Below, one piece after another: positions 38,293 through 59,562 of a DNA stretch of 64,000 nucleotides (within the stretch, counting starts at the first letter, position 1; each line of letters starts with the position of its first letter). Source of the DNA: Alphaproteobacteria bacterium UBA2903 (GTDB taxonomy: Bacteria; Pseudomonadota; Alphaproteobacteria; CAAGCB01; CAG-977); the NCBI GenBank assembly GCA_002349565.1, contig DEDN01000035.1:74812-138811 (forward strand). The letters are read 5' to 3'. A model generated the notes under the pieces. The model saw nothing but the letters and a program-made list of their open reading frames with translations. It was not told where the DNA came from and did not search any database. A program made the position numbers and the translations under genes.

Positions 38293-38304
38293 AAAAAGAA
38301 AAAT

Positions 38305-39409: not shown

Positions 39410-39431
39410 GATATTTCGATGACAACTCCTC

Positions 39432-42916: not shown

Positions 42917-43034
42917 TCTAACCTTCGTTAGGTCAGGAAAAATCCAATCCGCAGAAATCGGCGGAATATTTAAAAGGTTGATATTGCCGGAAACGTTTAG
43001 TAAACTTCAGCCTAACGAACGTCAGATTGGGAAA
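42908..43034. repeat. Imperfect 26-bp inverted repeat pair (cttcccaatctaaccttcgttagg / rc ctttcccaatctgacgttcgttagg) flanking a ~66 bp spacer
   Basis: The repeat is read on both strands. One arm overlaps the MTase start codon and the other overlaps the stop codon of the serine recombinase. About 22 of 26 positions match. Confidence 0.6.
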
Positions 43035-43614: not shown

Positions 43615-44354
43615 CGTTCGATACCTCTTTCTTTTGAATGTTCTGCGGGCTTGGGACGGTCGGCGGCGGCGCGGGATCGTTTCAGCTGTTCAAGCGTTTT
43701 GTGTTTGCGGGGAATGACGACTTGCGTCAAGGAAAAGTCCCTGTCCCGGAACCGCGTCGCCTGCAATTCAACGCCGAACCGTCTGGCGATTTCGGACTGG
43801 CGCAAGCGCATTTGCTCGATTTCCCGCCGGTTGAACTCCAACCGTTTCAAGCCGTTGTTCAGTTTCAAAATAAAGTGGATGTGTTTGTGCCGTTGATGAC
43901 GGTGCGCGGCGAACACATACGAATATCCGTTTTCGGCGAACGGTCGCATATATTCGGTCGCGAACGCTTCCAAATCCTCCGACGCCATACCGCACCCGTT
44001 CGGGAAAGACACGATAAAATGAATGGCGCACCGCCCGTTCTTGCGTCCGCTTTCCGGTTCTTCGGTCAGCCGTTCTTTGAACTCCTGCGCCGTCAGATGT
44101 GTTTCAGTTTCGTCCGTCAACGTCAGCTTTTCTTCCAAGCCTTTCGACTTTTCCGCGACGTATTCCGCCATAGCGCAAACCGTGCCGATGCTTTTGGCGT
44201 AACCGACTATCTTGAACACCGCTTCAAACGGACGGGAACGGGACAGGCTGATAAAGTGCTTTTGTAAAGGCTCGTAATGAAAGGGCAGTCCCGGACGCTC
44301 CCGCCGGATGCCGCGGATATGCTCGTCAAGCCAATCGTGTTTGCGTTTAACCAT
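43611..44354 (-). CDS. Mobilisation relaxase (MobA/VirD2-like relaxase domain)
   Basis: A histidine triad (AAHRHQRHKHIHFIL) is typical of the relaxase HxDxxHxHxH motif. The gene overlaps mobC and the resolvase. Confidence 0.6.
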   Translation of the reverse strand: MVKRKHDWLDEHIRGIRRERPGLPFHYEPLQKHFISLSRSRPFEAVFKIVGYAKSIGTVCAMAEYVAEKSKGLEEKLTLTDETETHLTAQEFKERLTEEPESGRKNGRCAIHFIVSFPNGCGMASEDLEAFATEYMRPFAENGYSYVFAAHRHQRHKHIHFILKLNNGLKRLEFNRREIEQMRLRQSEIARRFGVELQATRFRDRDFSLTQVVIPRKHKTLEQLKRSRAAADRPKPAEHSKERGIER

Positions 44355-44658
44355 AGTAATACCTCAACAGCCGGACAATCTTTTCCCGCAAAAGCGCAAG
44401 ACGTTCCAAGTGTTCTTTGATGTTTTCCGCTTCCGCTCCGCCGTTCAACGCGCGGGCGATCTGGTTCAGATTGACGCCGATCCGGCGCAGTTCCTCGCGG
44501 ATTTCCGTCAGCTTTTCGATTTCTTTCGTCCCCGGAGCGTTCGCTTTCGCCAATCCCGCCGCGATGAATCTGCGGGCGACGCCCGACGGGTTGTCAAACC
44601 TGTCGAGCATCGCTTTGTGTTCGGGTGGCAATCGTAAAGCGATCTTCACTTTCGCCAT
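44347..44658 (-). CDS. mobC: Mobilisation protein MobC (relaxosome accessory, RHH)
   Basis: The sequence MAKVKIALRLPPEHKAMLDRF...IGVNLNQIARALN is characteristic of MobC. The start is taken at ATG 44658 and the protein is 103 aa. Confidence 0.75.
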   Translation of the reverse strand: MAKVKIALRLPPEHKAMLDRFDNPSGVARRFIAAGLAKANAPGTKEIEKLTEIREELRRIGVNLNQIARALNGGAEAENIKEHLERLALLREKIVRLLRYYYG

Positions 44659-44663
44659 ACCGC

Positions 44664-44882
44664 TCACCCCCGTTCCGAAGTCGAATGAACGGGCGCGGAA
44701 AGCAGCTCCGCCACCCAAGCGTCCAAGTCCGCGACATCGTAAACGACTTGCGTTTTGCCGAACTTGCGGAACTTCGGACCGCCGCCGATCGTCGCGTATT
44801 TCGCCAACGTCGCCGACGTCCGGTTCAATCCCTTTTCCATCAGGTAAGAGGAAGCTTCCTTGCGTGTTAAATACGTTTTCAT
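44664..44882 (-). CDS. AlpA/Xis-family helix-turn-helix DNA-binding protein
   Basis: The 72-aa protein MKTYLTRKEASSYL...VVYDVADLDAWV has paralogs at 48709-48933 and 55968-56210. Confidence 0.6.
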   Translation of the reverse strand: MKTYLTRKEASSYLMEKGLNRTSATLAKYATIGGGPKFRKFGKTQVVYDVADLDAWVAELLSAPVHSTSERG

Positions 44883-45322
44883 AGTTTGGTGTCCTTTCGT
44901 AAAAATGACCGCCTTTTGACGGAACACTTCCAGAAAAGACCGATGCCGACCGCTTGGCAATTTTGCAAACGTGCAATTTCCGCCGTAAAAGCGCGAAAAC
45001 GGATTATATCTTATTGAAAATAAACGGGTTTAATTTGCAGGTTATCGGATTGAAAGGGACGGACTTTACCGGGTCGGGATAAAACCGGCAGGGCAAAGAG
45101 GCGTAAGGCGGGATTCCACGTGCGATTTTGTCCGACAAATCGCGTATACTGCAAAGGAAAGCCCCTCTGAAATATCAAAGACTTCCCCGCCGCCTAAATG
45201 TTTGAAAAACAGATATCCGACTTTTTTTGCAGGATAGCCTTTTTGTGGCACAAAAACGGCAAAAAAATTTCTTGTTTGAGAATGGCGGCGTTATCTTTTA
45301 TAAATAGGAAAAGGGGTGCTTT

Positions 45323-46259
45323 ATGGTTGAAAACGAACGCACGGAATACAAAGAAAAACTGACTGCCGCTTTGGAAAAGGAAGCGGTGGCGTTTCTGAAC
45401 GCGCACGGCGGAACGATCTATATCGGCATTGACAAGAACGGGAATCCCGTCGGCGTTGACAAGTGCGACGCGCTTCAACTGGAAATCAAAGACCGCCTGA
45501 TAACGGGGATTCGTCCGTCCGTTATGGGCTTGTTTGACATTGCCGGCGAACGTCTGAACGGATCGGGACGTTTTGACGGAAAATAAGAACTTCGGATATT
45601 GCTCTTTAATCAAGGCGACCGAACAGGTCTTGGACAAGTTTTTCGTTGAAAACAGGATTTACGCTCGCGTAACGGCAACCAAGCGCGAAGAACGCCCGAT
45701 GGTCGATCCGCAAGCATTAAGAGAAGCGGTCATTAACGCGATACTGCATAACGATTATTCATACAACAATCCGCCGAAGTTCGAAATGTTTTCGGACAGA
45801 ATAGAGATCACGTCAACGGGCGGCTTGCCGTGGGGAATGACGAAAGAAGACTTTTTCAACGGCAAGTCGTGTCCGCGCAATCCCGAATTGATGAGAATTT
45901 TTCAGGATATGGAACTGGTCGAGCGTCTTGGGTCGGGCGTGCGGCGGATTTTGAACGCTTACGCGCCGGACGTGTTCGAGATTTCGGACACTTTCTTCCG
46001 CGTAACGTTCCGCTATAACAAGCCGTTTGCCGAAGCGGACGATAAAGCCGGAGAGAAAAACAGGGAAAAAACTACCCAAAAAACTACCCAAAAAATCTTG
46101 GACGCAATCAGGAAGAATCCGCAGATCAGCCGTCAGGAACTGGCGGAAATCGTCGGTATTTCCGAAAGCGGCATTAAATGGCAGCTGAAAAAGATGAAAG
46201 ACGAAGGCATCATTGAGCGCGTCGGTTCTCTCAAAGGCGGCAAGTGGGTGGTAAAGTAA
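45323..46259 (+). pseudogene. AlbA_2 + HATPase_c_4 + HTH regulator, split by frameshift/deletion
   Basis: An N-terminal AlbA_2 (divergent AAA) fragment (45323-45586; FLNAHGGTIYIGIDKNG) is followed in another frame by the HATPase_c_4 and winged-HTH part (45573-46259). The full-length family is usually a single protein of about 400-480 aa. Confidence 0.6.
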
Positions 46260-46725
46260 GATTTCTATTCTTCCAGCTGAGTCAGTGCAATCCGTTTCAT
46301 TTCGTTTTTTTACAGTTTTCTTTTTTTCAACCAGATAAAGTGAATATCCGATAGCTTTCCAGTGTTTTCGACAATGGTTTCGATGCTGAACGAACGGCGA
46401 AAGGAGGAATAAAAGGCATTATTTTCGTTGCAACCTTAGATAAATCGGATAGGATAATTAATGGGATTCCTGAGCGATAAAAGGCCAACGGAATGAATTT
46501 GAGACTTTTTTTCTTTCACGGATTGATAAAAGAATTTCATCTGTCAAAAATACGGCGGATATTGGAAAGAACGGACATTGGTGATGAAGCGAAAATGCTG
46601 TTGGTCACAAACTCTTTGAATCGGTTGAAAGAAATTGATGAAGCCTACAATTTTGCTGATACTTTGGATAAATTGAATACGTTAATTAATGGACAAAATA
46701 AGCAATAATTTTTAGGGATTCCAAA

Positions 46726-47286
46726 ATGTTTTCTTATCCGATTATAATAGAACAACCAAAAGATTGGATTGATTATTTATCCGCTTTTGGCCCTATGATT
46801 GCCGCCTTTATTGCAATCGGTATAGCTGTTTGGCAGGGAATAATTCAAAATCGTCAGCATAATTTGGCTTTGTTCGAAAAAAGGTGGGCTTTTTGGGAAG
46901 AAACAAAAAAGCTTGGCTATAAAACACAAACATTTAAACATACTCCTGCTGACGAAATGGGCGATGGTTCAGATCCTGAAAAGAATTTTTGGATTGTTGG
47001 TCAGGAAATACAAAATCTGGCTAAAAAAGGCTGTGTTCTGTTTGGAAAAAAAATTGAAACGGAAATCAATGAAATTGCAGAAACTTTTAAAAAAAATCAT
47101 TTGCTTCAAGAAAGAATATTAGAAAAACTGAAATATAAAGATGACTATGAACGTGCAGGGAAATCTATAAGAGAAGAGCTTTCTATGGATTTTGATAATA
47201 AAAGGAAACTTGACTTACAGCACTCGCAAAAATGGAACGAATTAGCCCAGCATATTTTTGATAAGATACGGGAATTGGAAGTATGA
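46726..47286 (+). CDS. Hypothetical protein with one N-terminal TM segment (AT-rich)
   Basis: The 186-aa ORF has a hydrophobic stretch, PMIAAFIAIGIAVW, followed by a charged helical region. Confidence 0.4.
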   Translation: MFSYPIIIEQPKDWIDYLSAFGPMIAAFIAIGIAVWQGIIQNRQHNLALFEKRWAFWEETKKLGYKTQTFKHTPADEMGDGSDPEKNFWIVGQEIQNLAKKGCVLFGKKIETEINEIAETFKKNHLLQERILEKLKYKDDYERAGKSIREELSMDFDNKRKLDLQHSQKWNELAQHIFDKIRELEV

Positions 47287-47475
47287 TTCATTTCTGGTAT
47301 TGTTTTTTGAGAAACTGGAAGATTTTTTTGATGCTCTCTCTGCTCTGGTTGTTGCGGGATGGGCTGTTTTGCATACTTGGGGGAAAGAAAGGGAAGCCTT
47401 TCCATTATTTAGGAGTGCTACGGAGTTTTTTATAAGGGGTTTCAACGGGAAAAAGAGAAAAGGAGGCTGTTAAAA

Positions 47476-48564
47476 ATGTCGATAAAAGATCGTATGGTTG
47501 AACGGATGATGAAAAACTATCCTATCTTAAATAGAAAATATAGAGAGCTTCATTACGTCAACTTTTTGAAATATTTGGAAGATTTTTCAAAAAAAGAATT
47601 TAGTGAAAGTGGAAGAGAATATTATGCGAAATCTTTTCTATTTGATTGCTATATAGAGGCGGAAAAACGGTCTATACGTATAGAATCAGAAAACCGTAAA
47701 GAAGAAAAACGTAGAGAAGAAGAAATACGTAAAAAAGAAGCTGACGAGTTTGAAAAATATGTAATTTCTGAAATGGTAAAACATTATGCTGTTTTGAGAA
47801 CAAAGTTCAGTAGAGCGAAAGTGGTTGATGAATATGGAATTGAAACTTTTAATGAAGAACAGTTTGATGAAGATTTAAAGTATTTTGTTAGAAACGTTTT
47901 GAAAGAAAATAAAAATATGCCACAAGCGTTTTTCTTTCATTGCTTTGAACAAGCAAAAGAAGTTGCAGAAAAGGAATTTGATGAGTTCGAAAAATATGTA
48001 ATTTCTGAAATGGTAAAACATTATGCTGTTTTGAAAACGAAGTTTAATAGAGCAAATGTTGTTGATGAATATGGAATTGAAACTTTCAACGAAGAACAGT
48101 TTGATGAAGATTTAAAGTATTTTGTTAGAAAAGTTTTGAGAGAAAATAAGAATATGCCGCAAGAGTTTTTCTTCCGTTGCTTTGAAAAAGCAAAAGAAGT
48201 TGCGGAAATTGATTTTAATGTATCGAATATTCAAACAGGCGAAGATTATGAACGGTTTGTTCGTGAACTTTGCGTATCAGCCGGTTTTGAATGTGGAATG
48301 ACACCGAAAACGGGTGATCAGGGTGTTGATTTAATTGTCAGAAAAGACCGGACTCATATCGCGATACAGTGTAAATTCTATTCAAGTCTTATCGGAAATG
48401 CCGCAGTTCAGGAAGTCATCGCGGGACAGAAATTTTATAATTGCGATTATGCGTGCGTCGTTTCCAATCAAGATTATACCGATTCCGCGAGAAAACTGGC
48501 AAATGCGGCTGATGTTAAATTGTTATCACACGAAACATTGATTCCGTATCTGCAAAAACTGTGA
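47476..48564 (+). CDS. Mrr-like restriction endonuclease (C-terminal Mrr_cat domain) with duplicated N-terminal module
   Basis: The C-terminus, GDQGVDLIV...IAIQCKFYS...VGNAAVQEV, matches the Mrr catalytic D...QxK pattern. The N-terminal half contains two copies of an 80-aa unit. Confidence 0.6.
   Translation: MSIKDRMVERMMKNYPILNRKYRELHYVNFLKYLEDFSKKEFSESGREYYAKSFLFDCYIEAEKRSIRIESENRKEEKRREEEIRKKEADEFEKYVISEMVKHYAVLRTKFSRAKVVDEYGIETFNEEQFDEDLKYFVRNVLKENKNMPQAFFFHCFEQAKEVAEKEFDEFEKYVISEMVKHYAVLKTKFNRANVVDEYGIETFNEEQFDEDLKYFVRKVLRENKNMPQEFFFRCFEKAKEVAEIDFNVSNIQTGEDYERFVRELCVSAGFECGMTPKTGDQGVDLIVRKDRTHIAIQCKFYSSLIGNAAVQEVIAGQKFYNCDYACVVSNQDYTDSARKLANAADVKLLSHETLIPYLQKL
47746..48219 (+). repeat. 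Direct tandem duplication, 2 x 237 bp (~90% identical), inside the Mrr-like gene
   Basis: The unit EFEKYVISEMVKHYAVL(R/K)TKF...KEVAE is seen twice in both the DNA and the protein. Confidence 0.8.
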
Positions 48565-48708
48565 TTCTGCAAAAATATTTATGAATGGGGACTTAACTCA
48601 AATACTCTCCTGATTGGCGGATAAACCGTCATTCTGCCTATGCCTGTTATACTCCCCTGCCATATCGTCGTTTGATTGAAAAATAAAAAATTACTAAAAC
48701 AGGGCGGA

Positions 48709-48933
48709 TTACTCCGCCCTGTCTGTTGATACGTTTTTGTTGATCCATTCGTCCAAATCGGCTTTGCGGTATCGGACGACTTTTCCCAATTTGACAAACG
48801 GCAAGCCGTATTTGTTCGTCATACGCCAGACGGCAAGCGTGTTGATTTTCACGCCGATATAAACGGCGGCGTCCCTCGGTGTCATCAATCCGGCGGGGGA
48901 TATGTTGCAGGCTTCTTTACAGGTTCGTTCCAT
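48709..48933 (-). CDS. AlpA/Xis-family HTH DNA-binding protein
   Basis: The sequence MERTCKEACNISPAGLMTPRDAAVYIGVKINTLAVWR...VVRYRKADLDEWI carries an HTH_17-type signature. Confidence 0.55.
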   Translation of the reverse strand: MERTCKEACNISPAGLMTPRDAAVYIGVKINTLAVWRMTNKYGLPFVKLGKVVRYRKADLDEWINKNVSTDRAE

Positions 48934-49284
48934 GTGTTCCTCCTTTCTTTGACGAAGGCTTGAACACACAGAAACACCGGCGCACACGTCCTTCATCAAA
49001 TAAATGATGTCGGTTTCGATTGAATTGTGTGCAGGCTCGGTAAATACCGGTCTGTGCTAAAAAGCTGTTATCAATCTAAGCATATCAACGCCTTGTTTGC
49101 AATATCCCCCGTGTATGATTGTGATTGATTATCATTACCGGACGGAAAAAAAAGAAAATACGGATTGCGTTTTTTACGCTTTTGACTGATGATGAATGAG
49201 GAAGATTGATGACATTTGAACGGTGTCGGGGTTGACCGTCGGTCGACCGGAGTTTTCCCGAAGGCTTTGTAAATTGTCTGCCGG

Positions 49285-49313
49285 AAAACAAAAAATCCCT
49301 TGAAAATCAAGGG
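49285..49313 (-). terminator. Hairpin terminator downstream of tRNA-Gln
   Basis: The hairpin cccttgaaaatcaaggg is followed by a T-run on the minus strand. Confidence 0.5.
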
Positions 49314-49321: not shown

Positions 49322-49396
49322 TGGCTGGGGAACCTGGACTCGAACCAAGACTAACTGAGTCAAAGTCCGTTGCCTTACCGCTTGGCTACGTCCCAA
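49322..49396 (-). tRNA. tRNA-Gln (anticodon TTG)-like, with imperfect acceptor and anticodon stems; island boundary
   Basis: The reverse complement reads TTGGGACGTAGCCAAGCGGTAAGGCAACGGACTTTGACTCAGTTAGTCTTGGTTCGAGTCCAGGTTCCCCAGCCA. The D-arm, the anticodon loop CTTTGAC, the T-arm and the CCA end are canonical. The 5' acceptor strand mismatches the 3' strand at two or more positions, and the anticodon stem has one mismatch. Confidence 0.55.
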
Positions 49397-49505
49397 CGAC
49401 AATAAGATAAGTAATCTGTTTTTAAGGGCTTAGTCAAGTAATTTATGCACGCTTTAAATTTTAATTGTTTTTTTTATCAAATCGGGTATTGTGTGCTTTA
49501 CAGAC

Positions 49506-49582
49506 GCGCCCGTAGCTCAGCTGGATAGAGTATCGGCCTCCGAAGCCGAGGGTCGTGGTTTCGAATCCCGCCGGGCGCACCA
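49506..49582 (+). tRNA. tRNA-Arg (anticodon CCG)
   Basis: The sequence GCGCCCGTAGCTCAGCTGGATAGAG...CCTCCGAAGCC...TTCGAATCC...CGGGCGCACCA has a 7-bp acceptor, an anticodon loop CTCCGAA, and is 77 nt long, like E. coli argX. Confidence 0.85.
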
Positions 49583-49637
49583 TTCTTTAAAAAAAAACGG
49601 CCGTCGCGGTCGTTTTTTGCATTTACGGGGCGGAAAA

Positions 49638-50570
49638 ATGAAAATCGCCGTTTTAAGAGATGACCTGATAAACCCGTCTTCACCGGACGCTATGGATACG
49701 TTGACGGAGGCCGGATTTATCGAAAGCGTTTTATTCGACGGAAACGAAGTCCGGCAAATCCCGTTTTACGCCGATTTGGAAAAGACGATCGGCACGCTTC
49801 AACGGTATGCCCCCGATGTCGTTTTCAACCTGACGGAATCCGTTTGTTCTCAGGGCGGATTGGCGGTTTTCGCGCCGCAGCTGTTGGACATATTGCGTCT
49901 GCCGTATACGGGAAACAGGACGTTCGCGCATCTGGTCAGCGCGGACAAGGATTTGGCAAAGCGGCTGTTTTTGCAAAACGGATTGCCCGCGCCGTCTTCG
50001 GTTTATCGGGCGGGGGCAAGCTATTTGCTGAAAGCAAAAACGGAACACGCTTCCGCGCATTTGGACGATACCTGTGTCGTTTCTCCGGCGTCCGAAGACG
50101 AATTGCGGAGTGCGTTGAAACAAAAAGAGCGGGAAACCGGTCTGGCGTGGATCGCCGAAGAATATATCGACGGGCGGGAATTTAACGTCGCTTTGTTGGG
50201 CGATGAGATTCTGCCGCCGGCGGAGATGTGCTTTTCCCCCGATTTCAAAGGGCATAAGATTCTGACGTATGAAGCGAAATGGAACGAGGACTGCGACGCT
50301 TATCAACTCAGCCGCCGGTCGTTTGACGTCGAAAACGAAGTCAGGGAAAGGCTTTCCGCCGTCGCTTTGAAATGCAAAGACGTTCTGGATTTGCGCGGCT
50401 ACACGCGGATCGATTTCAGGATGAACGCCAAAGGGGTACTGTTCATCATTGATTTGAACACGAATCCCTGTATCGCGCCGGATTCCGGTTTTATCGCGAT
50501 GGCGCACGAAGCCGGATTGAGCGATAAAGAAGTCATTGAAAGGATCGTCGCCAATGCTTTTTCGAAATGA
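49638..50570 (+). CDS. ATP-grasp enzyme of the D-alanine--D-alanine ligase family (paralog)
   Basis: An RBS precedes ATG 49638. The protein is about 310 aa with an ATP-grasp C-terminal region (FIIDLNTNPCIAP). Confidence 0.6.
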   Translation: MKIAVLRDDLINPSSPDAMDTLTEAGFIESVLFDGNEVRQIPFYADLEKTIGTLQRYAPDVVFNLTESVCSQGGLAVFAPQLLDILRLPYTGNRTFAHLVSADKDLAKRLFLQNGLPAPSSVYRAGASYLLKAKTEHASAHLDDTCVVSPASEDELRSALKQKERETGLAWIAEEYIDGREFNVALLGDEILPPAEMCFSPDFKGHKILTYEAKWNEDCDAYQLSRRSFDVENEVRERLSAVALKCKDVLDLRGYTRIDFRMNAKGVLFIIDLNTNPCIAPDSGFIAMAHEAGLSDKEVIERIVANAFSK

Positions 50571-51036
50571 GATTTTTCCGCGGGATGTGGACGCTGTTCG
50601 CGAAATTCTTTCTTCGACGGGATTTTTTGAGGAAGCGCCGGATGAAATCGACGTCGCGATCGAATTGGCCGAAAAAGCGTTGGCGGACGACAATTCACCG
50701 GAAAACTACGACTTTGTTTTCTTGGATGACGGGGACAAAACGCTTGGCTACGCCTGTTTCGCGCGCGTGCCCTGCACGGTGTCAAGCTTTGAAATTTACT
50801 GGATTGCCGTGCATAACAACTGCCGCGGACAAGGGCTTGGCAAACAGCTGATGAAGGAGGTCGTCCGTCTGGTGAAAGGTTTCGGGGCGACAAAGCTTGT
50901 TTTACAGACGGCCGGACGGGAACAGTATCTGCCGACGCAAAAATTTTATCAATCGTGCGGTTTTAAGGAAGAAGCGCGCCTGAAAAACTACTATGCGGCA
51001 GGGGACGATTGCCTGATTTACACGATGGATTTCTAA
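50554..51036 (+). CDS. GNAT family N-acetyltransferase
   Basis: The acetyl-CoA binding motif (IAVHNNCRGQGLGKQLM) is present and the gene overlaps the upstream ATP-grasp gene. Confidence 0.65.
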   Translation: MLFRNEIFPRDVDAVREILSSTGFFEEAPDEIDVAIELAEKALADDNSPENYDFVFLDDGDKTLGYACFARVPCTVSSFEIYWIAVHNNCRGQGLGKQLMKEVVRLVKGFGATKLVLQTAGREQYLPTQKFYQSCGFKEEARLKNYYAAGDDCLIYTMDF

Positions 51037-52004
51037 CTGTTTTTGACTCTGTGAATCGCGGATTTCAGAATTTCCCCGATCAACGTCTGGTAATCCATTC
51101 CTGCCATTTTACATAAAATCGGCAAATCGGAATAAGTCGGATTCAATCCCGCCAAAGGATTGACTTCGATAAAGCGCGGCGTGCCCTGTGCGTCCAGCCG
51201 GACGTCGATGCGTCCCGCATCCAGACAGTCCAAAGCTTCCCACGCTTTCAACGCCGTTTCGGCGACTTTCGGTTCGTCAACCAGAACGTATCTGACGCGG
51301 TCTTCGTATTTCTGTTTGTTTTCGTAGGTGTACGCTTCCTGTTCCGCTTTTTCGCCCAGAACGATTTCCGCAACACCGATGACGCGGGCGTTCTTGCCGC
51401 TGCCGATCAGGCCGACGGTGAATTCCCGTCCGGACAGATATGTTTCGACCAGAACGGGTTCGTGAAAACGTTCCAACAAATCGGTGCAGACGTCTTTTAA
51501 TTCGGCTTTGTTATGGACGCAGGATTTCGCCGAAATGCCTTTGCTGGTTCCTTCGGCGACGGGTTTGGCAAACACGGGATAGGACAGCGGCATATCATCG
51601 ATATCCGCCGCTTCTTTGACCAAGAAGAATTCGCACGCCGGCACGCCGTAAGACCGAACGACCGCGTCGGTCATCGCCTTGTTCAGCGTCAGAGCCATCA
51701 GATCCGCCCCCGAAAAAGTGGAGGGAATGTGATACGCTTCCAATAAAGCGGGGACTTCCGCCTCGCGTCCCATACCGTCGACGCCTTCCGCGATGTTAAA
51801 GACCAAATCCCAGCGGTCGCCGGCGGCCAGGCGCTTCACCAGCGCTTTGACGTTGCCGATTTTGTCGGGCGTGTGGCCTTCGTTTCTGATGGCGTTTTCG
51901 ATCGCGTCGATCGTTTCCTCGCAGTCGAATTCGGCGACTTGTTCCGTTGAAAAGCCTTCCTTTAAATAATCGCTTTTCAGGTCGTAAGTGATTCCTATGC
52001 GCAT
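51033..52004 (-). CDS. ATP-grasp enzyme of the D-alanine--D-alanine ligase family (second paralog)
   Basis: MRIGITYDL... and FIEVNPLAGLNP are Ddl-like. The start is taken at ATG 52004 and the gene is immediately downstream of kamA. Confidence 0.6.
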   Translation of the reverse strand: MRIGITYDLKSDYLKEGFSTEQVAEFDCEETIDAIENAIRNEGHTPDKIGNVKALVKRLAAGDRWDLVFNIAEGVDGMGREAEVPALLEAYHIPSTFSGADLMALTLNKAMTDAVVRSYGVPACEFFLVKEAADIDDMPLSYPVFAKPVAEGTSKGISAKSCVHNKAELKDVCTDLLERFHEPVLVETYLSGREFTVGLIGSGKNARVIGVAEIVLGEKAEQEAYTYENKQKYEDRVRYVLVDEPKVAETALKAWEALDCLDAGRIDVRLDAQGTPRFIEVNPLAGLNPTYSDLPILCKMAGMDYQTLIGEILKSAIHRVKNS

Positions 52005-52005
52005 T

Positions 52006-53247
52006 TTAAACCCCTTCGCGGAAAACATCCGGATAAACGTAAGACTTGTCTGCGTAATTGTGCAGACGCAGATTTTCGCCGTCGATGCCGTCAACGTAGT
52101 TTGGCAGCAACGGTACTTTGCCGCCGCCGTTCGGAGCGTCGATCACATAGTGCGGCACAGCGTATCCGGAAATGAAGCCGCGCAGATGCTTGATGATGTC
52201 CAGTCCCGTCTGAACGGGCGTTCTGAAATGACGGGATCCGGGGACGGGGTCGCATTGATAAATGTAATACGGTTTGACGCGGAAAGAGAGCAAGCCCATC
52301 ATCAGCTTGCGCATCGTTTCCGGATCGTCGTTGACGCCTTTGAGCAAAACGGTCTGGGAGCCGATCGGCATACCGGCATCGGCCAGCCGTTCGCAAGCGG
52401 CTTTCATCTCCGGCGTCAGTTCGTCGGGATGGGTCGCGTGGATACTGACAAAGACGGGATGATACTTGGCGACCATATGGACCAGACGCGTCGTGATGCG
52501 CTGGGGCAGAACGGCTGTCGTCTTCGTCCCGAGCCGGATGATCGAAACGTGCGGGATCGCGCGCAGACGGGCTAACAGTTTTTCAAGCGTTTCCGTCGGC
52601 AAAGTCAGCGGATCGCCGCCCGATACGACGACGTCCTGCACTTCCTCGTGTTCGGCGATGTATTGGATTGCCTGCTCCCAGTAATCGTGTTTGCATTCGT
52701 GATGCGTCGCGCCGATCAGACGGGAACGGGTGCAATAACGGCACGCCGTACTGCAAAAATCGGTCGACAGGAACAAGATGCGGTTCGGATAGCGGTGAAC
52801 CAATCCTTTGACGGGACTGTCGCGGTCTTCGCTCAGCGGATCGACTTTTTCTTCGGGCGAGATATCGTATTCGTCGGAAACGGGAATGACGCAACGGCGC
52901 AACGGCTGTGTCGGATCGTCGGGATCAAGCAAACTCATATAGTAGGGCGTGATCGCGACGGGAAAGCCTTTCTTTCCGTGTTCAAGCGCGCGGGCTTCGC
53001 TGTCGGTCAGATGCAGGACCCGTTCGATGTCGGCTTTTTTGCGGAATCTGTTGCGGATCTGCCAACGCCAGTCGTTCCATTGGGCTTCGGTGGTCTGCGG
53101 AAAATAAGTGTGCAGAAAACGGCGGGATCTGTCGGAGATAACGTGTTCCGAATGGTTGTGGGGAAGAGGGGAAGACGGAGGTTCTTCGGAAGATTCTTGC
53201 GTTTCTTCCGTCATCGGCTGTTCGGGAGCCGGAAAAGTCGTGTCCAT
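52006..53247 (-). CDS. kamA: Lysine 2,3-aminomutase (radical SAM, KamA family)
   Basis: The radical SAM motif CSTACRYC is present. The length (413 aa) and conserved regions (PVKGLVHRYPNRILFL, VSGGDPL) match KamA, and there is an acidic/Pro-rich N-terminal extension. Confidence 0.8.
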   Translation of the reverse strand: MDTTFPAPEQPMTEETQESSEEPPSSPLPHNHSEHVISDRSRRFLHTYFPQTTEAQWNDWRWQIRNRFRKKADIERVLHLTDSEARALEHGKKGFPVAITPYYMSLLDPDDPTQPLRRCVIPVSDEYDISPEEKVDPLSEDRDSPVKGLVHRYPNRILFLSTDFCSTACRYCTRSRLIGATHHECKHDYWEQAIQYIAEHEEVQDVVVSGGDPLTLPTETLEKLLARLRAIPHVSIIRLGTKTTAVLPQRITTRLVHMVAKYHPVFVSIHATHPDELTPEMKAACERLADAGMPIGSQTVLLKGVNDDPETMRKLMMGLLSFRVKPYYIYQCDPVPGSRHFRTPVQTGLDIIKHLRGFISGYAVPHYVIDAPNGGGKVPLLPNYVDGIDGENLRLHNYADKSYVYPDVFREGV

Positions 53248-53356
53248 AAAAATGCCTTTTCAAAAAGACGATAACGGCGTTATATTTTACTCTGTTTAAA
53301 AAGGACTTCAAGACTTATTTGAAGAATTTAATTAAAAAAATAGCGAAAGGGATGAT

Positions 53357-54028
53357 ATGCGGGAAGCAGTCGATAAAACACAAGATGATTTGCCTTTTTT
53401 GTTTTTGCGGAAAAGCTATGCCGATTATGAAAAGGCGGTCGTAAAATGTGATGATTTGCTGGCGAAAAATCCGTCGGACGCGACCGCTTATTATATCCGT
53501 TCGATGGCGCGGTTCGGTATGGCGTCATTGGTTCCGACGAAATTCATCGGTGATGAAACCGTTTCGGAAAAGCGGATCGATGCCGTTTGCCGTGAAAACG
53601 CGGACACTTTTCAAAAAATCAGAAAGCGGCTTTCGGCGGAAGCGCAAAAAGACCCGAATAATAAAGATCATCTCATTTCGGAACTGACTTTCGGATTTTG
53701 GGCTTATCTTTTTTCCTCCGCCTACAAGAAAGCGTTATGGAGCAAGCATCCGACCTTGTTGAAGGAAATCTTCGACTGCACGAAGGAAACGCTTGTTTCG
53801 GGGCGCGTTTACGAACGTGTCAACAGAATACGTATGTATAGGAACAAGGTGTTTCATTACGGTTCTTTGATAACGGTAACGGATGCTTTGAACGAACCGG
53901 CGAGAATCCACAATATGATTTACAAGCTGATTCGCGATATGAACGCTAACTCGGTTCTGAAACAAATAAAGGAAATCGACCGCTTTAACGAGGAATACAC
54001 CAAAGGACGCCGGTTGGGATTTTTGTAA
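53357..54028 (+). CDS. Abi_2/HEPN-like abortive-infection family protein
   Basis: ELTFGFWAYLF resembles the Abi_2 LSFGEL motif. An Rx4H HEPN motif (RNKVFH) is present. The protein is 223 aa. Confidence 0.45.
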   Translation: MREAVDKTQDDLPFLFLRKSYADYEKAVVKCDDLLAKNPSDATAYYIRSMARFGMASLVPTKFIGDETVSEKRIDAVCRENADTFQKIRKRLSAEAQKDPNNKDHLISELTFGFWAYLFSSAYKKALWSKHPTLLKEIFDCTKETLVSGRVYERVNRIRMYRNKVFHYGSLITVTDALNEPARIHNMIYKLIRDMNANSVLKQIKEIDRFNEEYTKGRRLGFL

Positions 54029-54150
54029 AGGCAACAGAAAAGAGGCGTCAACTACAATCAGACCGAAATCCTGCTTAAAAAAGCTTAATGTAGTATATAG
54101 CCTCTCTATCTGAAAGAAAATATAAGGTTATCCCAGCCGTTTGTCAAGCG

Positions 54151-55155
54151 TTATCGTTTGGCGGGTCTGCCTTTGCCGCGCCGTCCGACCGTTTGAAGCC
54201 CCCATCCGTTCGCCAGTCGCGCCGCTTCCTGTATCTGATTTTCGGAAGCGAACTCAAATCCTTTTTCTTTCGCTTTTTGAATCAAAGCCCGTTCGACGAC
54301 TTTGTTTTCCGGAATGTTGTCGGCGGTGTAGCCGTTTTCCTCTATCACTTCGGCGACAAGGGCAAGCAACGGCGGCAAGGAGGATCTTTTTCTCACCGGT
54401 TTTGCCTCCTCGTATTTGAACAAAGGCGGATTCACGGGCGGACAAACGCGCATCAGCTCTTTCGTATCGACCTCTATTTCCGCAAAGCCCCGTAAAAAGC
54501 GCGATACTCTGTTGCGCTTCAAATCCAGCTTGAAATCGGCGATCGCGCCCATCGTTCCGTAAGTGATGACCGGATAACGCGCGTCTTCGACGGAAGTTTC
54601 CTTGCCGAACAGTTTGCGGTATCGCTTTAATCGCAAAGTTTGCCAATCGGGAACCGGAATATCGCCTTCCTCAAACTCGGCGTCGGGATCGAAACACTCG
54701 AAATCGAAACGTCCCGCTTTGTGGCAATACCGCGCTTTGAAGTGATACACTTTCCGGCAGACGCCGTTGAAATGAAACGCCTGAAGATTTTCTAACCATT
54801 CGTAATACAAAAATCTGACCGGAAGCTTCGTTCTCGGGTGAAGCAACCGCGTCAAGCCGATCAGGAAGCAGAGCAACACCATCAAACAGCGCGTGAAAAG
54901 CCACATCGTCAGCGTGTCCGCTCCGAAAAAGAAAGCGTAACGCCCGGTTATGGCGACTTTTTGCGTTTTAATCAGCACTTTTAATTTGTCTTTCGCCGCC
55001 CGTAAAAGCTTTTTTTGATACGGATAGGCGTCGCGGTAAACGTTCTTGAATTCCTCATCGGTCGGCGGATAACCGAACGCCACCCATTCGCACGCTTCCA
55101 GCAAAGTGCAGGTCGGCTTTATCGGTATTTCTATTTCTTCAAATCCTGTCGCCAT
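54151..55155 (-). CDS. Hypothetical protein (334 aa)
   Basis: A strong RBS (aagggggaaacgATG) is present. There is one hydrophobic segment and no recognised domain. Confidence 0.5.
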   Translation of the reverse strand: MATGFEEIEIPIKPTCTLLEACEWVAFGYPPTDEEFKNVYRDAYPYQKKLLRAAKDKLKVLIKTQKVAITGRYAFFFGADTLTMWLFTRCLMVLLCFLIGLTRLLHPRTKLPVRFLYYEWLENLQAFHFNGVCRKVYHFKARYCHKAGRFDFECFDPDAEFEEGDIPVPDWQTLRLKRYRKLFGKETSVEDARYPVITYGTMGAIADFKLDLKRNRVSRFLRGFAEIEVDTKELMRVCPPVNPPLFKYEEAKPVRKRSSLPPLLALVAEVIEENGYTADNIPENKVVERALIQKAKEKGFEFASENQIQEAARLANGWGLQTVGRRGKGRPAKR

Positions 55156-55967
55156 CGTTTCCCCCTTATTCTTTCTCAAGAAAGGATAAGAAGGCCGTTG
55201 AAGGAAATCAACTTGTTGATTTTTATCGGTTTTTTGATTTTGATTGATTTTAATTGATGCCGGTCGAAAACGATTAAAAACGGGATAAAGTTTTTCTCAA
55301 ATTGCTTTTTGCGCTAGAAAGACGTATCATCTTTAACGAAGCGGGAACTGGAAAAGGTTTTCGTTTTTCAGAGGTTGCTTTCAAAGGATAAAACACGCTT
55401 CGGGATTGTTACTGGGACGTTACCTTGAAAACGGTTTCTAAAAAGTCAAAAAAACAAATAAGACAGGATTTTTTATTTAAGTTCAAACGGTTATCAAAAC
55501 ACATTCCCCGAAAAAAATTGATTTTTCAAAATCGGGGAGGTTTTGACGTATGTTCAGATTCCACCCCTTCCGGTCGGAATTAAAGGTCTTAACGATCATT
55601 CCACATAGTGATTTTCGAACTCCCCGCTATGACTTTAAAGTATTGCCGCTTTTTTGTCGGAAAGTTTTAACCGTTTGAATTTAAAACGGATTTCAGCGTT
55701 TTTTCTGCTTCGATTTTAGCAAGCCCTATTTTCAAGGTAACAGCACGGTAACAAAAATTCCATATTTGCCCGCCTTGGAAAGCAACCTCAATTTGTCGCC
55801 GTTGATTGCTCTATGACGCCATCAATCAAGGTACGTCTTTTTTCCGATTCCGTCAAGCCGCATGCAAAAGACTCAAAAAGCTCCCAAAAGCACCATTTTG
55901 AACGGTTCCTCTTTGATTTGTTTCATGCCACCGTAAAGGCGTTTGAAATCAATCAAAGGAGTTCGTT

Positions 55968-56210
55968 ATGGAAATCAGGAAAGAATATTTAACGCGCGGA
56001 CAAGCGGCTGAATACTGCATCAAACAGGGCTTGCCCGTCAGCCAGAAAACTTTGGCGAAATACGCGTGCGTCGGCGGCGGACCGAAGTTCCGCAAGTTCG
56101 GGACAATGCGCGTCGTCTATAAAATCACCGACTTGGACGAATGGATTGAGCAGCGCTTGTCCGACACTTTTGCGGCGACGGGAATCCCTTGCGGCGGAGA
56201 TGACGCATGA
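55968..56210 (+). CDS. AlpA/Xis-family HTH DNA-binding protein (third paralog)
   Basis: The sequence MEIRKEYLTRGQAAEYCIKQGLPVSQKTLAKYACVGGGPKFRKFGTMRVVYKITDLDEWI is collinear with the proteins at 44664-44882 and 48709-48933. Confidence 0.6.
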   Translation: MEIRKEYLTRGQAAEYCIKQGLPVSQKTLAKYACVGGGPKFRKFGTMRVVYKITDLDEWIEQRLSDTFAATGIPCGGDDA

Positions 56211-56415
56211 CGGACTTTGCGGACTTGTTTTTCCGTTCGTCGAAAACACCGAAAGAAGCGAGTGCAGGATACTCGTAATACGCTCCGGCTCTGCGAGGCA
56301 CAATCAGAAGTGCGTTTTTTATGGAAAGCGTAATTTCCGGAAGTTGTTTTTTTACGGCTTGTTTTTGCGGCGGTGAACTTTTAGAATAGCGTATTCTTTC
56401 GGTTGAATCGTAGGG

Positions 56416-57894
56416 GTGAAAATGATAACGGGTGTCATAAAAAACAAAATCGACAATATTTGGACGATCATCTGGGCGGGCGGAATAACCAATCCGATTA
56501 CAGTGATTGAACAGCTGACTTATTTGATGTTTATTCACGATTTGGACGTCAAAGAGCTTGAAACGGAGCGGTTGGAAAACCTGACGCATACGAAAATGGA
56601 AAGGATTTTTCCGCAAACACCTGCGGGACAGGCGTTAAGGTGGCACAATTTCAAAGACAAGAACGCCGCCGAGATTTTTGCGACTTTAAAAGACCGCGTT
56701 TTCCCGTTTATCAAAAACGAGTTGGGTAAAGACGAGCAGTCCGCTTTTTCCCGTTACATGAGCGACGCTCTGTTTTTGTTTCCCACGCCGCAGATTGTTG
56801 AAAGAGTCGTTACGGGATTGGACGATTTGTATCAACACGACCTTTCGGGGTTGGACGTTCAGGGCGACTTGTACGAATATATGCTGGATAAATTGGCGAC
56901 TTCCGGAAAAAACGGGCAATTCAGAACACCGGCGCAAATCCGCAACATGATGGTTCGCCTGATCGAACCGACGCCGGATTCAAAGATTTGCGATCCGGCG
57001 TGCGGCACGGCGGGCTTTTTGATTTCAAGCGCGGAGTTTATTCGTTCCAAATATGAAAACGTGATGACTTCGGAACAATGGGATCACTTTGCGGGCGATA
57101 TGTTCAGCGGGTTCGATATGGACAAGACGATGTTGCGAATTTCCGCAATGAACCTGATGCTTCATTCAATCACAACGCCGACGATCGAATATCGGGACAG
57201 CGTTTCCAAAACGAACGACATCGCCGAAGAATACGACATCGTACTGGCAAACCCGCCGTTTGCGGGAACGATCGACAAAGAAGGCGTCAGCGACGATTTG
57301 AAACGCGTCTGCAATACGACGAAAACGGAACTGCTGTTTATCGCTTTGTTTTTAAGAATGTTGAAAAAGGGCGGTCGTTGCGCCTGCATCGTCCCCGACG
57401 GCGTTTTGTTCGGCACGACCAAAGCCCACCAATCCCTGCGCAAGGAACTGATTGAAAACCATAAATTGCAAGCCGTGATTTCCATGCCGTCGGGGGTGTT
57501 CAAACCCTATTCCGGCGTTTCGACAGCCGTTCTGGTCTTTACCAAGACGGGCGCGGGCGGCACGGACAAGGTTTGGTTTTACGATATGAACGCCGACGGG
57601 TTCAGTCTGGACGACAAGCGCAATCCCGTTGAGGAAAACGACATTCCGGACATTCTGGCGCGGTTTCATAATTTGGCGGGCGAAACGTCGCGCGCCCGCA
57701 CGGAACAAAGCTTCTTCGTCCCTAAATCCGAAATTGAACAAAACAATTACGATTTGTCGATCAACCGGTATAAAGAAGTCGTCCACGAAAAAATCGAATA
57801 CGACAAACCCGACGTTATCTTGACCCGCATCGACACCCTCATCGCCGACATCGCGGCGCAAACGAAAAAAGTCAGAGAAATGCTCAATGGATGA
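56416..57894 (+). CDS. hsdM: Type I restriction-modification system methyltransferase subunit HsdM
   Basis: An HsdM N-domain and an N6-adenine MTase core (DPACGTAGFL, LANPPFAG) are present. Confidence 0.9.
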   Translation: MKMITGVIKNKIDNIWTIIWAGGITNPITVIEQLTYLMFIHDLDVKELETERLENLTHTKMERIFPQTPAGQALRWHNFKDKNAAEIFATLKDRVFPFIKNELGKDEQSAFSRYMSDALFLFPTPQIVERVVTGLDDLYQHDLSGLDVQGDLYEYMLDKLATSGKNGQFRTPAQIRNMMVRLIEPTPDSKICDPACGTAGFLISSAEFIRSKYENVMTSEQWDHFAGDMFSGFDMDKTMLRISAMNLMLHSITTPTIEYRDSVSKTNDIAEEYDIVLANPPFAGTIDKEGVSDDLKRVCNTTKTELLFIALFLRMLKKGGRCACIVPDGVLFGTTKAHQSLRKELIENHKLQAVISMPSGVFKPYSGVSTAVLVFTKTGAGGTDKVWFYDMNADGFSLDDKRNPVEENDIPDILARFHNLAGETSRARTEQSFFVPKSEIEQNNYDLSINRYKEVVHEKIEYDKPDVILTRIDTLIADIAAQTKKVREMLNG

Positions 57895-58471
57895 TACTGT
57901 TTTAATAAACAGCCTGAAAAATGCTGTTGAACAGCTTTATGAAAAAGATGCGTATTTGTTGCACAGCAACCACGAATTGCACGAGCAAACCGTTTCGCAT
58001 AGATTGGCGGTGTATTTGGAAAACAATTTAAGAAAATTCTCTATATTCCGAGAAAACGACTTTTCTGTTGATTGCGAATATAACAAAAACGGAAAGAAGT
58101 TAAAAATAGTTTCTTGTTATAGCTGCCCTAATAGAGATTGCGTTTTATTAGAAAACAGATCTTTTGAAAAAATAAACTGTGTTCGTCCGGACATTATCGT
58201 TCATAAAAGAGGGAATAATTTTCCGACAAATTTATTGATAGTTGAATTAAAAAAGAAAACAAACAAAAATTTTAATGAAAAATATAAAGATAAAATGAAA
58301 TTATCCGCTTTCACTTGTCAAAGACAGGAAGACGAAAAACATCATTACCAATACCAACTTGGCTTTTTTATTGAATATAGTGGTAAAGCGATGGCTTTAC
58401 AGGAATTTAAAAACGGAAAAGAAACAGCTGTTTATAGCTTTGATGCCGAAACAAAAAAATGGACAGATTGA
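57887..58471 (+). CDS. Restriction-linked ORF: small PD-(D/E)xK nuclease-fold protein inserted between hsdM and hsdS
   Basis: The AT-rich ORF overlaps the hsdM stop by 8 nt (ATGGATGA). The motif ...CVRPDIIVHK...LLIVELKKK fits PD...(D/E)xK. Confidence 0.55.
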   Translation: MDDTVLINSLKNAVEQLYEKDAYLLHSNHELHEQTVSHRLAVYLENNLRKFSIFRENDFSVDCEYNKNGKKLKIVSCYSCPNRDCVLLENRSFEKINCVRPDIIVHKRGNNFPTNLLIVELKKKTNKNFNEKYKDKMKLSAFTCQRQEDEKHHYQYQLGFFIEYSGKAMALQEFKNGKETAVYSFDAETKKWTD

Positions 58472-58472
58472 T

Positions 58473-59561
58473 ATGAACAAATGGAAAAAAGTTAAATTAG
58501 GAAAGCAATTAAAACGCATTAGAACAGGAAAACTTGATGCAAATGCATCAAGTGAAAATGGGATATATCCTTTCTTTACTTGCTCTGTATTTCCACTAAA
58601 AATAGGGACGTACAGCTATGATTGTGAATGTGTACTTGTTGCAGGGAATGGAGATTTAAATGTAAAATATTACAATGGAAAATTCGATGCTTATCAAAGG
58701 ACGTACATACTTGAAGTTTTAGATAAAAATATTTTAAATACACGATATTTTTATTATTTTATGAAAGATTACATTGATATTTTAAGAACCAAAACAAAAG
58801 GAGGGGTTATTAAATATATTCGCCTTAATGATATAGCAGATGCGGAAATCCCTCTGCCGGCGATGGAGGAGCAGAAGAAAATCGCGGCGCGGTTGGACGC
58901 CGTTTCCGATTTGCTGGCAAAACAAAAACAACTGCTGTCCGAACAAGACAACCTGATCCAATCCCTCTTTTACGATATGTTTTTAAAACAAAATTTCTCT
59001 AAACGAAAAATCGTAGATTTTGTTGAAACCGATGTGAAAAATGCAAAAAAAATATTTAATAAAAATAACTTTATTAAATATATTGATATTTCGTCAATAG
59101 ATAATAATTCAAATATCATAACAGGTTATACACATATCGAGTTTTGTGATGCTCCATCCAGAGCGCAACAAGTCGTCAAAAAAAATGATATCCTTGTTTC
59201 AACAGTAAGACCTAATCTGAAAAATATTGCTTTAATAAAGTTTAACGATAATAATCTTGTTGCCTCTTCTGGTTTTTGCGTATTACGAGCTAAAAATATA
59301 GAACCTGTTTTTTTGCTATACAATGTTCTTTCTCAGGATTTTACAGAAAAAATGGTAAGTGCTGTAACGGGAGCGAACTATCCTGCTATTAAAAATTCAG
59401 ATATTTTAAATTATAAGATTCCTGTTCCTCCTCTTGAATTACAGGAAAAATTTGCGGCGATCGTCGAACAAATCGAATCCGAAAAATCGAAAATCAAATC
59501 CGCCATCGCCGAAACCCAAACCCTTTTCAACGCCCTAATGTCTGAATATTTTGAGGATTAA
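58473..59561 (+). CDS. hsdS: Type I R-M specificity subunit HsdS
   Basis: Two target-recognition regions are separated by conserved HsdS coiled-coil repeats (LPLPAMEEQKKIAARLDAVSDLL; LPVPPLELQEKFAAIVEQIE). Confidence 0.85.
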   Translation: MNKWKKVKLGKQLKRIRTGKLDANASSENGIYPFFTCSVFPLKIGTYSYDCECVLVAGNGDLNVKYYNGKFDAYQRTYILEVLDKNILNTRYFYYFMKDYIDILRTKTKGGVIKYIRLNDIADAEIPLPAMEEQKKIAARLDAVSDLLAKQKQLLSEQDNLIQSLFYDMFLKQNFSKRKIVDFVETDVKNAKKIFNKNNFIKYIDISSIDNNSNIITGYTHIEFCDAPSRAQQVVKKNDILVSTVRPNLKNIALIKFNDNNLVASSGFCVLRAKNIEPVFLLYNVLSQDFTEKMVSAVTGANYPAIKNSDILNYKIPVPPLELQEKFAAIVEQIESEKSKIKSAIAETQTLFNALMSEYFED

Positions 59562-59562
59562 A

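Follow-up and report, generated by a model that had tools for sequence, protein, structure and literature searches.

A KamA-family aminomutase encoded beside an acetyltransferase is found as AblA/AblB in methanogens and some bacteria and as yodP-kamA in Bacillus, and this pairing is the known two-gene logic for N-epsilon-acetyl-beta-lysine, an osmolyte. Other pathways, those of N-acetylglutaminylglutamine amide (NAGGN; Ngg/AsnO) and N-acetylaspartylglutamate (NAAG; NAT8L with RIMKLA/B), use a GNAT together with one or more ATP-grasp ligases to make a small N-acetylated di- or tripeptide, and Ngg is a bifunctional GNAT/ATP-grasp fusion enzyme. Beta-lysine is also supplied by a KamA-family enzyme, EpmB, for amide conjugation by EpmA, a paralogue of lysyl-tRNA synthetase; in Escherichia coli the beta-lysine made by this KamA paralogue modifies elongation factor P (EF-P), and epmB adjoins efp there. 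Pyrrolysine synthesis by PylB and PylC follows a similar logic, in which a radical-SAM rearrangement of lysine precedes amide coupling by a Ddl-like ATP-grasp enzyme. Here we describe a cassette of four genes in a stretch of 64,000 nucleotides from Alphaproteobacteria bacterium UBA2903 (assembly GCA_002349565.1, contig DEDN01000035.1, positions 74,812 to 138,811 of the forward strand; hereafter the window). The cassette encodes a KamA-family radical-SAM aminomutase (KamA), two ATP-grasp ligases with the fold of D-alanine--D-alanine ligase (Ddl), which we call GraspB and GraspA, and a small GNAT.

Each of these systems resembles the cassette in part. As in AblA/AblB and yodP-kamA, an aminomutase that keeps the lysine-binding residues stands beside an acetyltransferase, whereas the cassette aminomutase scores under the AblA cut-off, its GNAT is a RimI-like protein of 160 aa rather than the two-domain AblB, and two ATP-grasp ligases are integral conserved parts. 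The pairing of a GNAT with ATP-grasp ligases is shared with the NAGGN and NAAG pathways, and the two activities meet in one protein in Ngg as they do in the GraspA-GNAT fusions of cassette relatives, a resemblance of logic only. Here, however, the ligases are Ddl-type and not RimK-type, the fusions have the domain order ATP-grasp then GNAT, the beta-amino acid would be supplied by a radical-SAM enzyme and the conserved neighbours include no amidotransferase. With Ddl and VanA the cassette ligases share the three-domain ATP-grasp fold and all ATP, Mg and acyl-phosphate residues, but they are just 23-27% identical to them, have changed specificity residues and lack a cell-wall gene context. In contrast to EpmB/EpmA, neither EpmA nor efp lies near the cassette, and its conjugating enzymes are ATP-grasp proteins, unlike the aminoacyl-tRNA-synthetase-like EpmA. 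The comparison with pyrrolysine synthesis ends with PylB, which is not a KamA-family enzyme dependent on pyridoxal phosphate (PLP), and with PylD, which the cassette lacks; GraspA matches the PylC model weakly (22.8 bits, cut-off 248). The cassette belongs to none of the AblAB, EpmAB, Ddl/Van and glutamate or arginine aminomutase systems, as it lacks a defining feature of each. By analogy, its mode of working may be a hybrid between beta-lysine osmolyte synthesis and the peptide-solute pathways that pair a GNAT with ATP-grasp enzymes.

We propose that the cassette is a self-contained module for the ATP-dependent assembly of a small cytoplasmic N-acetylated beta-lysine di- or tripeptide, which may serve as a solute or stress metabolite. 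From the protein sequences and their neighbourhoods we hold this reading to be probable, if by a modest degree. In public databases the proteins go by the names 'KamA family radical SAM protein', 'D-alanine--D-alanine ligase' and 'ATP-grasp domain-containing protein', and none of the four has a model of its own in NCBIfam release 20. A full-text literature search, which did not cover the amidoligase survey of Iyer et al. 2009, found no description of the cassette. A paper on the Klebsiella ATP-grasp protein CfmP and a note on Pelobacter ablAB were considered and proved unrelated to it.

Conservation of the cassette

An earlier note, made from the letters of this DNA alone, had described kamA followed on the same strand by an ATP-grasp gene, and facing them a second ATP-grasp gene that overlaps a GNAT gene. 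This layout is correct and all four genes are intact (Table 1). The ATG of GraspB lies 1 nt past the KamA stop, a placement consistent with translational coupling. The GNAT gene and the 3' end of GraspA share 17 nt if the GNAT starts at the ATG and 35 nt if it starts at the TTG. At the other end of the GNAT gene its stop (TAA, 51034-51036) overlaps that of the convergent GraspB (TAG, 51035-51033) by 2 nt on opposite strands, so that the two gene pairs converge without a spacer and a terminator would not fit between the transcription units. A longer mechanical open reading frame (ORF) for GraspA, at 49491-50570, is spurious, as it reads through the tRNA-Arg(CCG) gene; automatic gene callers also run GraspA through this tRNA, giving a protein of 359 aa on an identical metagenomic contig (L001).

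GTDB was scanned for KamA with a single genome for each species; of the more than 600 KamA-like stretches that came up, the best 80, which have 50-61% identity, served for the study of gene neighbourhoods. Carriers among these 80 belong to Lentisphaeria, Bacteroidales, Prolixibacteraceae, Rikenellaceae, Desulfobacterota, Planctomycetota, Alpha- and Gammaproteobacteria and Spirochaetota, with Ilyobacter and Vampirovibrio in addition. Partners were counted where at least 4 kb follow the KamA homologue downstream, a set of 61 GTDB loci from Alpha- and Gammaproteobacteria, Bacteroidota, Desulfobacterota, Fusobacteriota, Lentisphaerota, Planctomycetota and Spirochaetota. GraspB is the most tightly linked of them (56 of the 61 loci), followed by GraspA (50) and the GNAT (46), and all three stand together in 45. 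The usual order is collinear, KamA-GraspB-GraspA-GNAT; inversion of the GraspA-GNAT pair is the one departure from it in the window and its close relatives. The same genes lie beside KamA homologues in most of the 80 loci, which come from unrelated phyla, and the arrangement is not due to chance.

Clustering of the flanking ORFs of the 80 loci gave no further family common across phyla, and no transporter, mur gene or additional Ddl homologue. Neighbours limited to single lineages do occur: some Desulfobacterota have a sigma-54-type regulator and also a small protein, a few Bacteroidales a small membrane protein and some Planctomycetota a CxxCxxCC protein. The window and the flanks (8-10 kb) of 86 related loci gave no homologue of EF-P or EpmA. 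Some lineages hold KamA-GraspB alone, which suggests that the minimal or ancestral product was a simpler dipeptide.

Gene fusions tie the same partners together. GraspA is fused to the GNAT in six loci (L031, L032, L051, L061, L063 and L071). An exhaustive search for GraspB at E <= 1e-30 yielded 632 cluster representatives at 50% identity, and fusions were counted in the best 150. Among these we found 14 GraspB-GraspA fusions and three of the reverse order, GraspA-GraspB, as well as about 15 tandem GraspB-GraspB proteins, which form a related subfamily, and one KamA-GraspB fusion of 746 aa (P0373). The two-module GraspB-GraspA ligases are 640-730 aa long and fall into many 50%-identity clusters (among proteins P0361-P0374). 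Since the four genes are conserved together and are fused to one another, they function together.

In 10 of the 61 loci the cassette is joined by a further protein of 580-790 aa, in which an HDAC domain (PF00850), nearest to acetylpolyamine amidohydrolases (6PHR, E 1.8e-75), follows an N-terminal extra GNAT-like domain. Fusion of this protein to the cassette GNAT is seen in L020, L042, L058 and L069, and L043, L049, L052, L059, L064, L070 and L079 encode it as a separate gene. This added deacetylase suggests reversible acetylation of an aliphatic amine. The presence of an acetyltransferase and a deacetylase within one polypeptide is unusual in itself.

The aminomutase

KamA carries the radical-SAM motif FCSTACRYCTRSR. 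Of the models compared it passes only the broad one for the KamA subfamily, TIGR00238, with 333.6 bits against a cut-off of 199.2. Its best curated family match is the AblA/KamA equivalog TIGR03820, under whose cut-off it remains (426.6 against 525.4 bits). It likewise falls below the cut-offs of the models for glutamate 2,3-aminomutase (TIGR04368; 394.9 against 650), arginine 2,3-aminomutase (357 against 600) and AblA-like-2 (310 against 396). For the EpmB model TIGR03821 it has 253.1 bits against 369.3. The earlier note had named an EpmB-type enzyme as a finding that would overturn its proposal; KamA is not of this type, being 33% identical to E. coli EpmB and having neither efp nor epmA near it or its relatives. 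The same ranking of models repeats across 18 diverse members of the clade, for which the best match to the AblA model, recorded as an E-value and not a bit score, was 4.7e-152.

The closest solved structure is the lysine 2,3-aminomutase of Clostridium subterminale (PDB 2A5H; E 9e-119), to which KamA aligns without gaps at an offset of +40. In the alignment of the 18 members C165, C169 and C172 are invariant, as are R174, D333, D370 and K377, which correspond to residues 134, 293, 330 and 337 of the clostridial enzyme. We take Arg134 of 2A5H to hold the carboxylate, Asp293 and Asp330 the epsilon-ammonium group of lysine, and Lys337 the PLP. The conserved residues support free L-lysine as the predicted substrate and beta-lysine as the product. 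In glutamate 2,3-aminomutase of C. difficile the two lysine-binding Asp are replaced by Lys/Asn; in KamA both are kept and invariant, which argues against an aminomutase of the glutamate type. The clostridial Zn site is absent from KamA, where D308 takes the place of Cys268 and the protein ends before the C-terminal cluster Cys375/377/380.

KamA has an N-terminal extension of about 45 aa that the Clostridium enzyme does not have, and across the clade the extension spans 40-130 residues. Of 79 clade members, 45 have in the extension an acidic-Pro-Pro motif of the form [DE][DE..]PP[SG..], where shuffling of the extensions predicts 2.0, and P23 of KamA is invariant in the 18-member alignment. When the homologues L004-L083 were inspected, some KamA proteins of Bacteroidales showed the variants VPL or EEPG, without a Pro-Pro pair, at this place. 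The motif could dock KamA to the ligases or could be an EF-P-sensitive stalling site.

The two ligases

GraspA and GraspB are 25% identical to each other. Against the Ddl models NF002378 and TIGR01205 (cut-offs 243 and 245.65 bits), GraspB scores 140.0 and 120.3 bits and GraspA 102.2 and 97.1 bits, and both ligases remain under the cut-off of every Ddl/Van model. AlphaFold2 models of the two are confident (mean predicted local distance difference test scores of 91.5 for GraspB and 92.2 for GraspA), and the top folds found by Foldseek are Ddl, with template modelling (TM) scores of about 0.77 for GraspB and 0.79 for GraspA. The best matches are DdlA/B of Pseudomonas aeruginosa at TM 0.74-0.80 and 23-27% identity. 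The structure search was also examined for a closer relative other than Ddl, such as PylC or an L-amino-acid ligase, and Ddl and Van structures alone lead the list. Both models have the compact Ddl fold with its lid loop. This compact fold is usual for small-molecule and dipeptide ligases rather than for processive polymerases.

For a comparison of functional residues we aligned 71 GraspB and 50 GraspA sequences to E. coli DdlB, whose numbering is used here. K97, K144, E180, E187, K215, R255, D257, E270 and N272 are invariant in both families, except that E270 is replaced by D in seven GraspA sequences. As the residues for ATP, Mg and acyl-phosphate are thus retained, GraspA and GraspB are both predicted to be active ligases. 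The substrate pockets tell a different story, as the comparison with Ddl suggested in the earlier note brought out. The Ddl triad E15/S150/Y216 reads D, A or G, and W in GraspA, and E, T and one of E, Q, K or A in GraspB, with chiefly E or Q at the position of Y216. At L282 of DdlB, GraspB has an invariant Asp and GraspA a Gly, and at G276 GraspA has a Cys. The region of H63 holds, in both families, the invariant Glu of an FN(I/L)xE motif. Further acidic residues, here numbered in the ligases themselves, are invariant: E28, D30 and E84 in GraspB, and D17, D20 and D282 in GraspA. These GraspB numbers refer to the 326-aa translation of window positions 51033-52013 and are lowered by 3 for the 323-aa protein.

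The ligases are not bona fide Ddl enzymes, since they score below the cut-offs, have the triad replaced and have no adjacent mur or fts genes. The earlier note's other ground for doubt, that they might be ordinary ddl copies, is removed by the same observations. The surplus of negative charge predicted for both pockets suggests cationic, diamino substrates, and because of this the product may hold more than one unit of the lysine or beta-lysine type.

The acetyltransferase

The GNAT meets the gathering cut-off of PF00583 (56.6 bits against 20.7), and its best NCBIfam match is RimI, at 66 bits and below the cut-off of 86. We rejected an assignment to AblB: the score against TIGR03827 is 19.7 bits, far below the cut-off of 205.1, and comes from a local match to profile positions 50-76, and the protein is a single domain of 160 aa where the model has 266 positions. 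The match to the streptothricin acetyltransferase Sat4 is weak as well (22.8 bits, cut-off 380). A full-length orthologue has a solved structure, PDB 2R7H (E 6e-35; residues 2-159 against 21-175), deposited by structural genomics as 'Putative D-alanine N-acetyltransferase of GNAT family'. This name probably derives from neighbouring genes misannotated as 'Ddl'. We considered and dropped the idea that 2R7H is Dde_3044; Dde_3047 encodes a phosphatase.

Together with the conserved ligases and the fusions, a GNAT that is not of the AblB type supports the proposal of the earlier note that the product is a conjugate more complex than N-epsilon-acetyl-beta-lysine; the product itself we infer.

Genomic setting

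The GC content of the cassette is 0.538, close to the 0.527 of the first 37 kb of the window, whereas the two stretches that flank it are at 0.41 and 0.40. In the relative L084, whose KamA is 78% identical, the same convergent four-gene layout lies among lptD, lptF/G, rpmB, a MiaB-like gene and an RND pump. Another relative, L085, has KamA-GraspB alone between a flavin reductase gene and polA/pheST. Since its GC content is that of the core and its context in the 78% relative is one of housekeeping genes, the cassette is native chromosomal DNA that is here merely bordered by islands. The earlier note had come to the same view from base composition.

Upstream, a low-GC (41%) mobile or defence island at about 37500-49300 ends at a divergent pair of tRNA genes (Table 1); the names of its genes were taken in part from the annotation of L001. 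Its Mrr-domain gene contains, in the N-terminal half, a tandem duplication of 237 nt (79 aa) with 87% identity at 47715-48188. No convincing att-type direct repeats border the cassette or the islands, and no riboswitch or leader RNA was found around the cassette. None of the four cassette proteins matches a PADLOC defence model, and a tblastn search of PLSDB with GraspB at E <= 1e-30 gave zero matches on plasmids.

Table 1. Features of the cassette and its surroundings in the window (position 1 is the first letter of the 64,000-nt stretch).
Feature	Position	Strand	Remarks
KamA, KamA-family radical SAM / PLP aminomutase	52006..53247	-	413 aa; Radical_SAM and LAM_C matches
GraspB, Ddl-fold ATP-grasp ligase	51033..52004	-	323 aa; Dala_Dala_lig_C 1.2e-30
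GraspA, second, more divergent Ddl-fold ATP-grasp ligase	49638..50570	+	310 aa; Dala_Dala_lig_C 2.9e-20
GNAT N-acetyltransferase, small	50554 (ATG) or 50536 (TTG)..51036	+	160/166 aa; Acetyltransf_1 3.9e-15
Candidate sigma-70-like promoter, TTGAAG-16-TAAAAT	53284..53311	-	about 40 nt 5' of KamA ATG; consensus scan, 9/12 matches; weak
Acidic-Pro-Pro motif in KamA N-terminal extension	53173..53187	-	residues ~21-25; SEEPPS
tRNA-Gln(TTG)	49322-49395	-	divergent pair with tRNA-Arg, between upstream island and GraspA
tRNA-Arg(CCG)	49506-49582	+	ends 56 nt before GraspA ATG; followed by hairpin and T-run
DUF1848 protein	38351-39535		upstream island
SF1/UvrD-like helicase	41007-42068		upstream island
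CheR-like methyltransferase fragment match	42047-42916		upstream island
Resolvase	43012-43614		upstream island
Relaxase	43611-44354		upstream island; MobC also present
Schlafen/AlbA_2-HATPase_c_4 pair	45323-46259		upstream island
Mrr-type nuclease	47476-48564		upstream island
HTH_17/AlpA-like protein	48709-48999		upstream island
Second low-GC (40%) stretch	53357-64000		beyond KamA
PD-T4-5-like protein	53357-54028		E 1e-6
342-aa ORF without assignment	54151-55179
AlpA-like 80-aa ORF	55968-56210		second AlpA-like gene
Type I restriction-modification methylase (hsdM)	56416-57894		NPPF motif
PD-Lambda-3_A-like gene	57887-58471		inserted between hsdM and hsdS; E 4e-12
HsdS	58359-59561
600-aa ORF without assignment	59551-61353		before hsdR
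HsdR	62446 onward		runs past window end

Discussion

The pathway that we propose would begin with KamA, whose conserved residues suggest that it turns free L-lysine into beta-lysine (3,6-diaminohexanoate). GraspB would then form an acyl-phosphate with ATP and join beta-lysine by an amide bond to a second amino acid or amine; we place it second because of the gene order, its start immediately after the kamA stop, its near-universal linkage to KamA and the single KamA-GraspB fusion. The frequent GraspB-GraspA fusions suggest that GraspA attaches a further residue to the GraspB intermediate through a second amide bond. Finally, as the GraspA-GNAT fusions would have it, the GNAT may acetylate a remaining free amine and in this way neutralise its charge or cap the chain, the order of acetylation and ligation being a guess. 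A role of the product as a compatible solute or stress metabolite in the cytoplasm is our most economical guess, because no exporter accompanies the cassette and its contexts are those of housekeeping genes.

Several observations weigh against this pathway as we have drawn it. Neither a riboswitch nor a regulator that responds to salt or stress came to light. The KamA-GraspB fusion is a lone metagenomic representative and could be an artefact of assembly or gene calling. Because some lineages keep KamA-GraspB without the other two genes, GraspA and the GNAT may be an optional extension and not obligatory steps. Our model also leaves the acidic-Pro-Pro motif of the KamA extension without an explanation.

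The cassette might instead be an ATP-grasp-based system for the conjugation or polymerisation of beta-lysine and not a small-solute pathway, an idea that we regard as rather doubtful. As a conjugation system it could be a new route to macromolecule beta-lysylation, for example of EF-P in phyla without EpmA and EarP, and the [DE]EPP[SG] motif of KamA could then serve as an EF-P-sensitive translational sensor. As a polymer system it could make a cyanophycin- or streptothricin-like non-ribosomal beta-lysine polyamide, with two fused Ddl-type modules and an acetyl cap. Among the specific alternatives, one is that beta-lysine is joined non-ribosomally into an oligomer or polymer, or into a secreted peptide with bioactivity, similar to the beta-lysine chain of streptothricins or to a storage polyamide like cyanophycin; the GNAT would then be a self-protecting or capping enzyme and the deacetylase an activating or mobilising one. 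This alternative would account for two distinct ligase modules that are often fused and for the common tandem GraspB-GraspB proteins, and the abundance of invariant acidic residues in both pockets fits cationic diamino substrates. The deacetylase of the acetylpolyamine amidohydrolase type, fused to GNATs in 10 of the 61 loci, and the faint likeness of the cassette GNAT to Sat4 point the same way. We nevertheless think it unlikely, since the conserved neighbours include no exporter, immunity gene or peptidase, the Sat4 score is far under its cut-off, the genes lie in housekeeping contexts and the compact fold with its lid loop is a trait of dipeptide ligases, not of processive polymerases. That the ATP-grasp enzymes attach beta-lysine or a beta-lysyl peptide to a protein, be it EF-P or, by analogy with RimK and RimI, a ribosomal protein, appears improbable to us. 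RimK-type ATP-grasp enzymes do modify proteins, EF-P of E. coli is modified with beta-lysine, RimI is the best curated match of the GNAT, and the excess of the Pro-Pro motif in KamA is of interest as XPPX motifs of the [DE]EPP[SG] kind are EF-P-dependent stalling contexts. But efp, epmA or a conserved target gene is not found within 8-10 kb in the 86 loci, KamA is nearer to AblA/KamA than to EpmB, and the ligases are Ddl-type rather than RimK/TTL-type. Moreover, the distribution appears patchy and not lineage-wide, by impression and not by quantification, and the variants VPL and EEPG favour a docking motif over a stalling signal.

Two alternatives would take the ligases out of the pathway. 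If the cassette made plain N-epsilon-acetyl-beta-lysine, the Ddl-like genes would be unrelated to it or would encode cell-wall D-Ala-D-Ala or D-Ala-D-X ligases. The pairing of KamA with a GNAT, the standing of AblA as best curated match and the public name of the ligases agree with this, and yet we find it very improbable: the GNAT falls far short of AblB in score and in length, KamA is linked more tightly to the ligases (56 and 50 of 61 loci) than to the GNAT (46), fusions join the ligases with KamA, with one another and with the GNAT, and both ligases fail the Ddl cut-offs, without the E15/S150/Y216 triad and without mur or fts genes around them. Hardly credible, finally, is a catabolic KamA that would open the fermentation of lysine to acetate, butyrate and ammonia. 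Many carriers are anaerobes and the clostridial enzyme is the closest of known structure. Against this, genes for lysine 5,6-aminomutase, 3,5-diaminohexanoate dehydrogenase, the 3-keto-5-aminohexanoate cleavage enzyme and the CoA-transferase are not conserved nearby, the ligases and the GNAT are the only conserved partners, and KamA has neither the Cys268 that binds Zn nor the Cys cluster at the C-terminus of the clostridial enzyme.

If the assembly of a small N-acetylated beta-lysine peptide is indeed the role of the cassette, widespread genes now labelled 'D-alanine--D-alanine ligase' and 'lysine 2,3-aminomutase' would encode an undescribed pathway for beta-amino-acid peptides. To recognise it would correct a systematic misannotation that is able to distort the counts of cell-wall and vancomycin-resistance genes in metagenomes. 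The two ligases would be new enzymes of the Ddl fold with altered specificity, for use in beta-peptide biocatalysis. Carriers span Bacteroidota, Desulfobacterota, Planctomycetota, Proteobacteria, Spirochaetota and gut Lentisphaerota, and since cultured carriers exist, among them Prolixibacter denitrificans DSM 27267 (L075), Maridesulfovibrio ferrireducens, Salidesulfovibrio onnuriiensis and Desulfacinum infernum, the hypothesis is directly testable. In the carriers the cassette would yield beta-lysine metabolites of a new class, which might help anaerobes to tolerate osmotic, ammonia or other stress.

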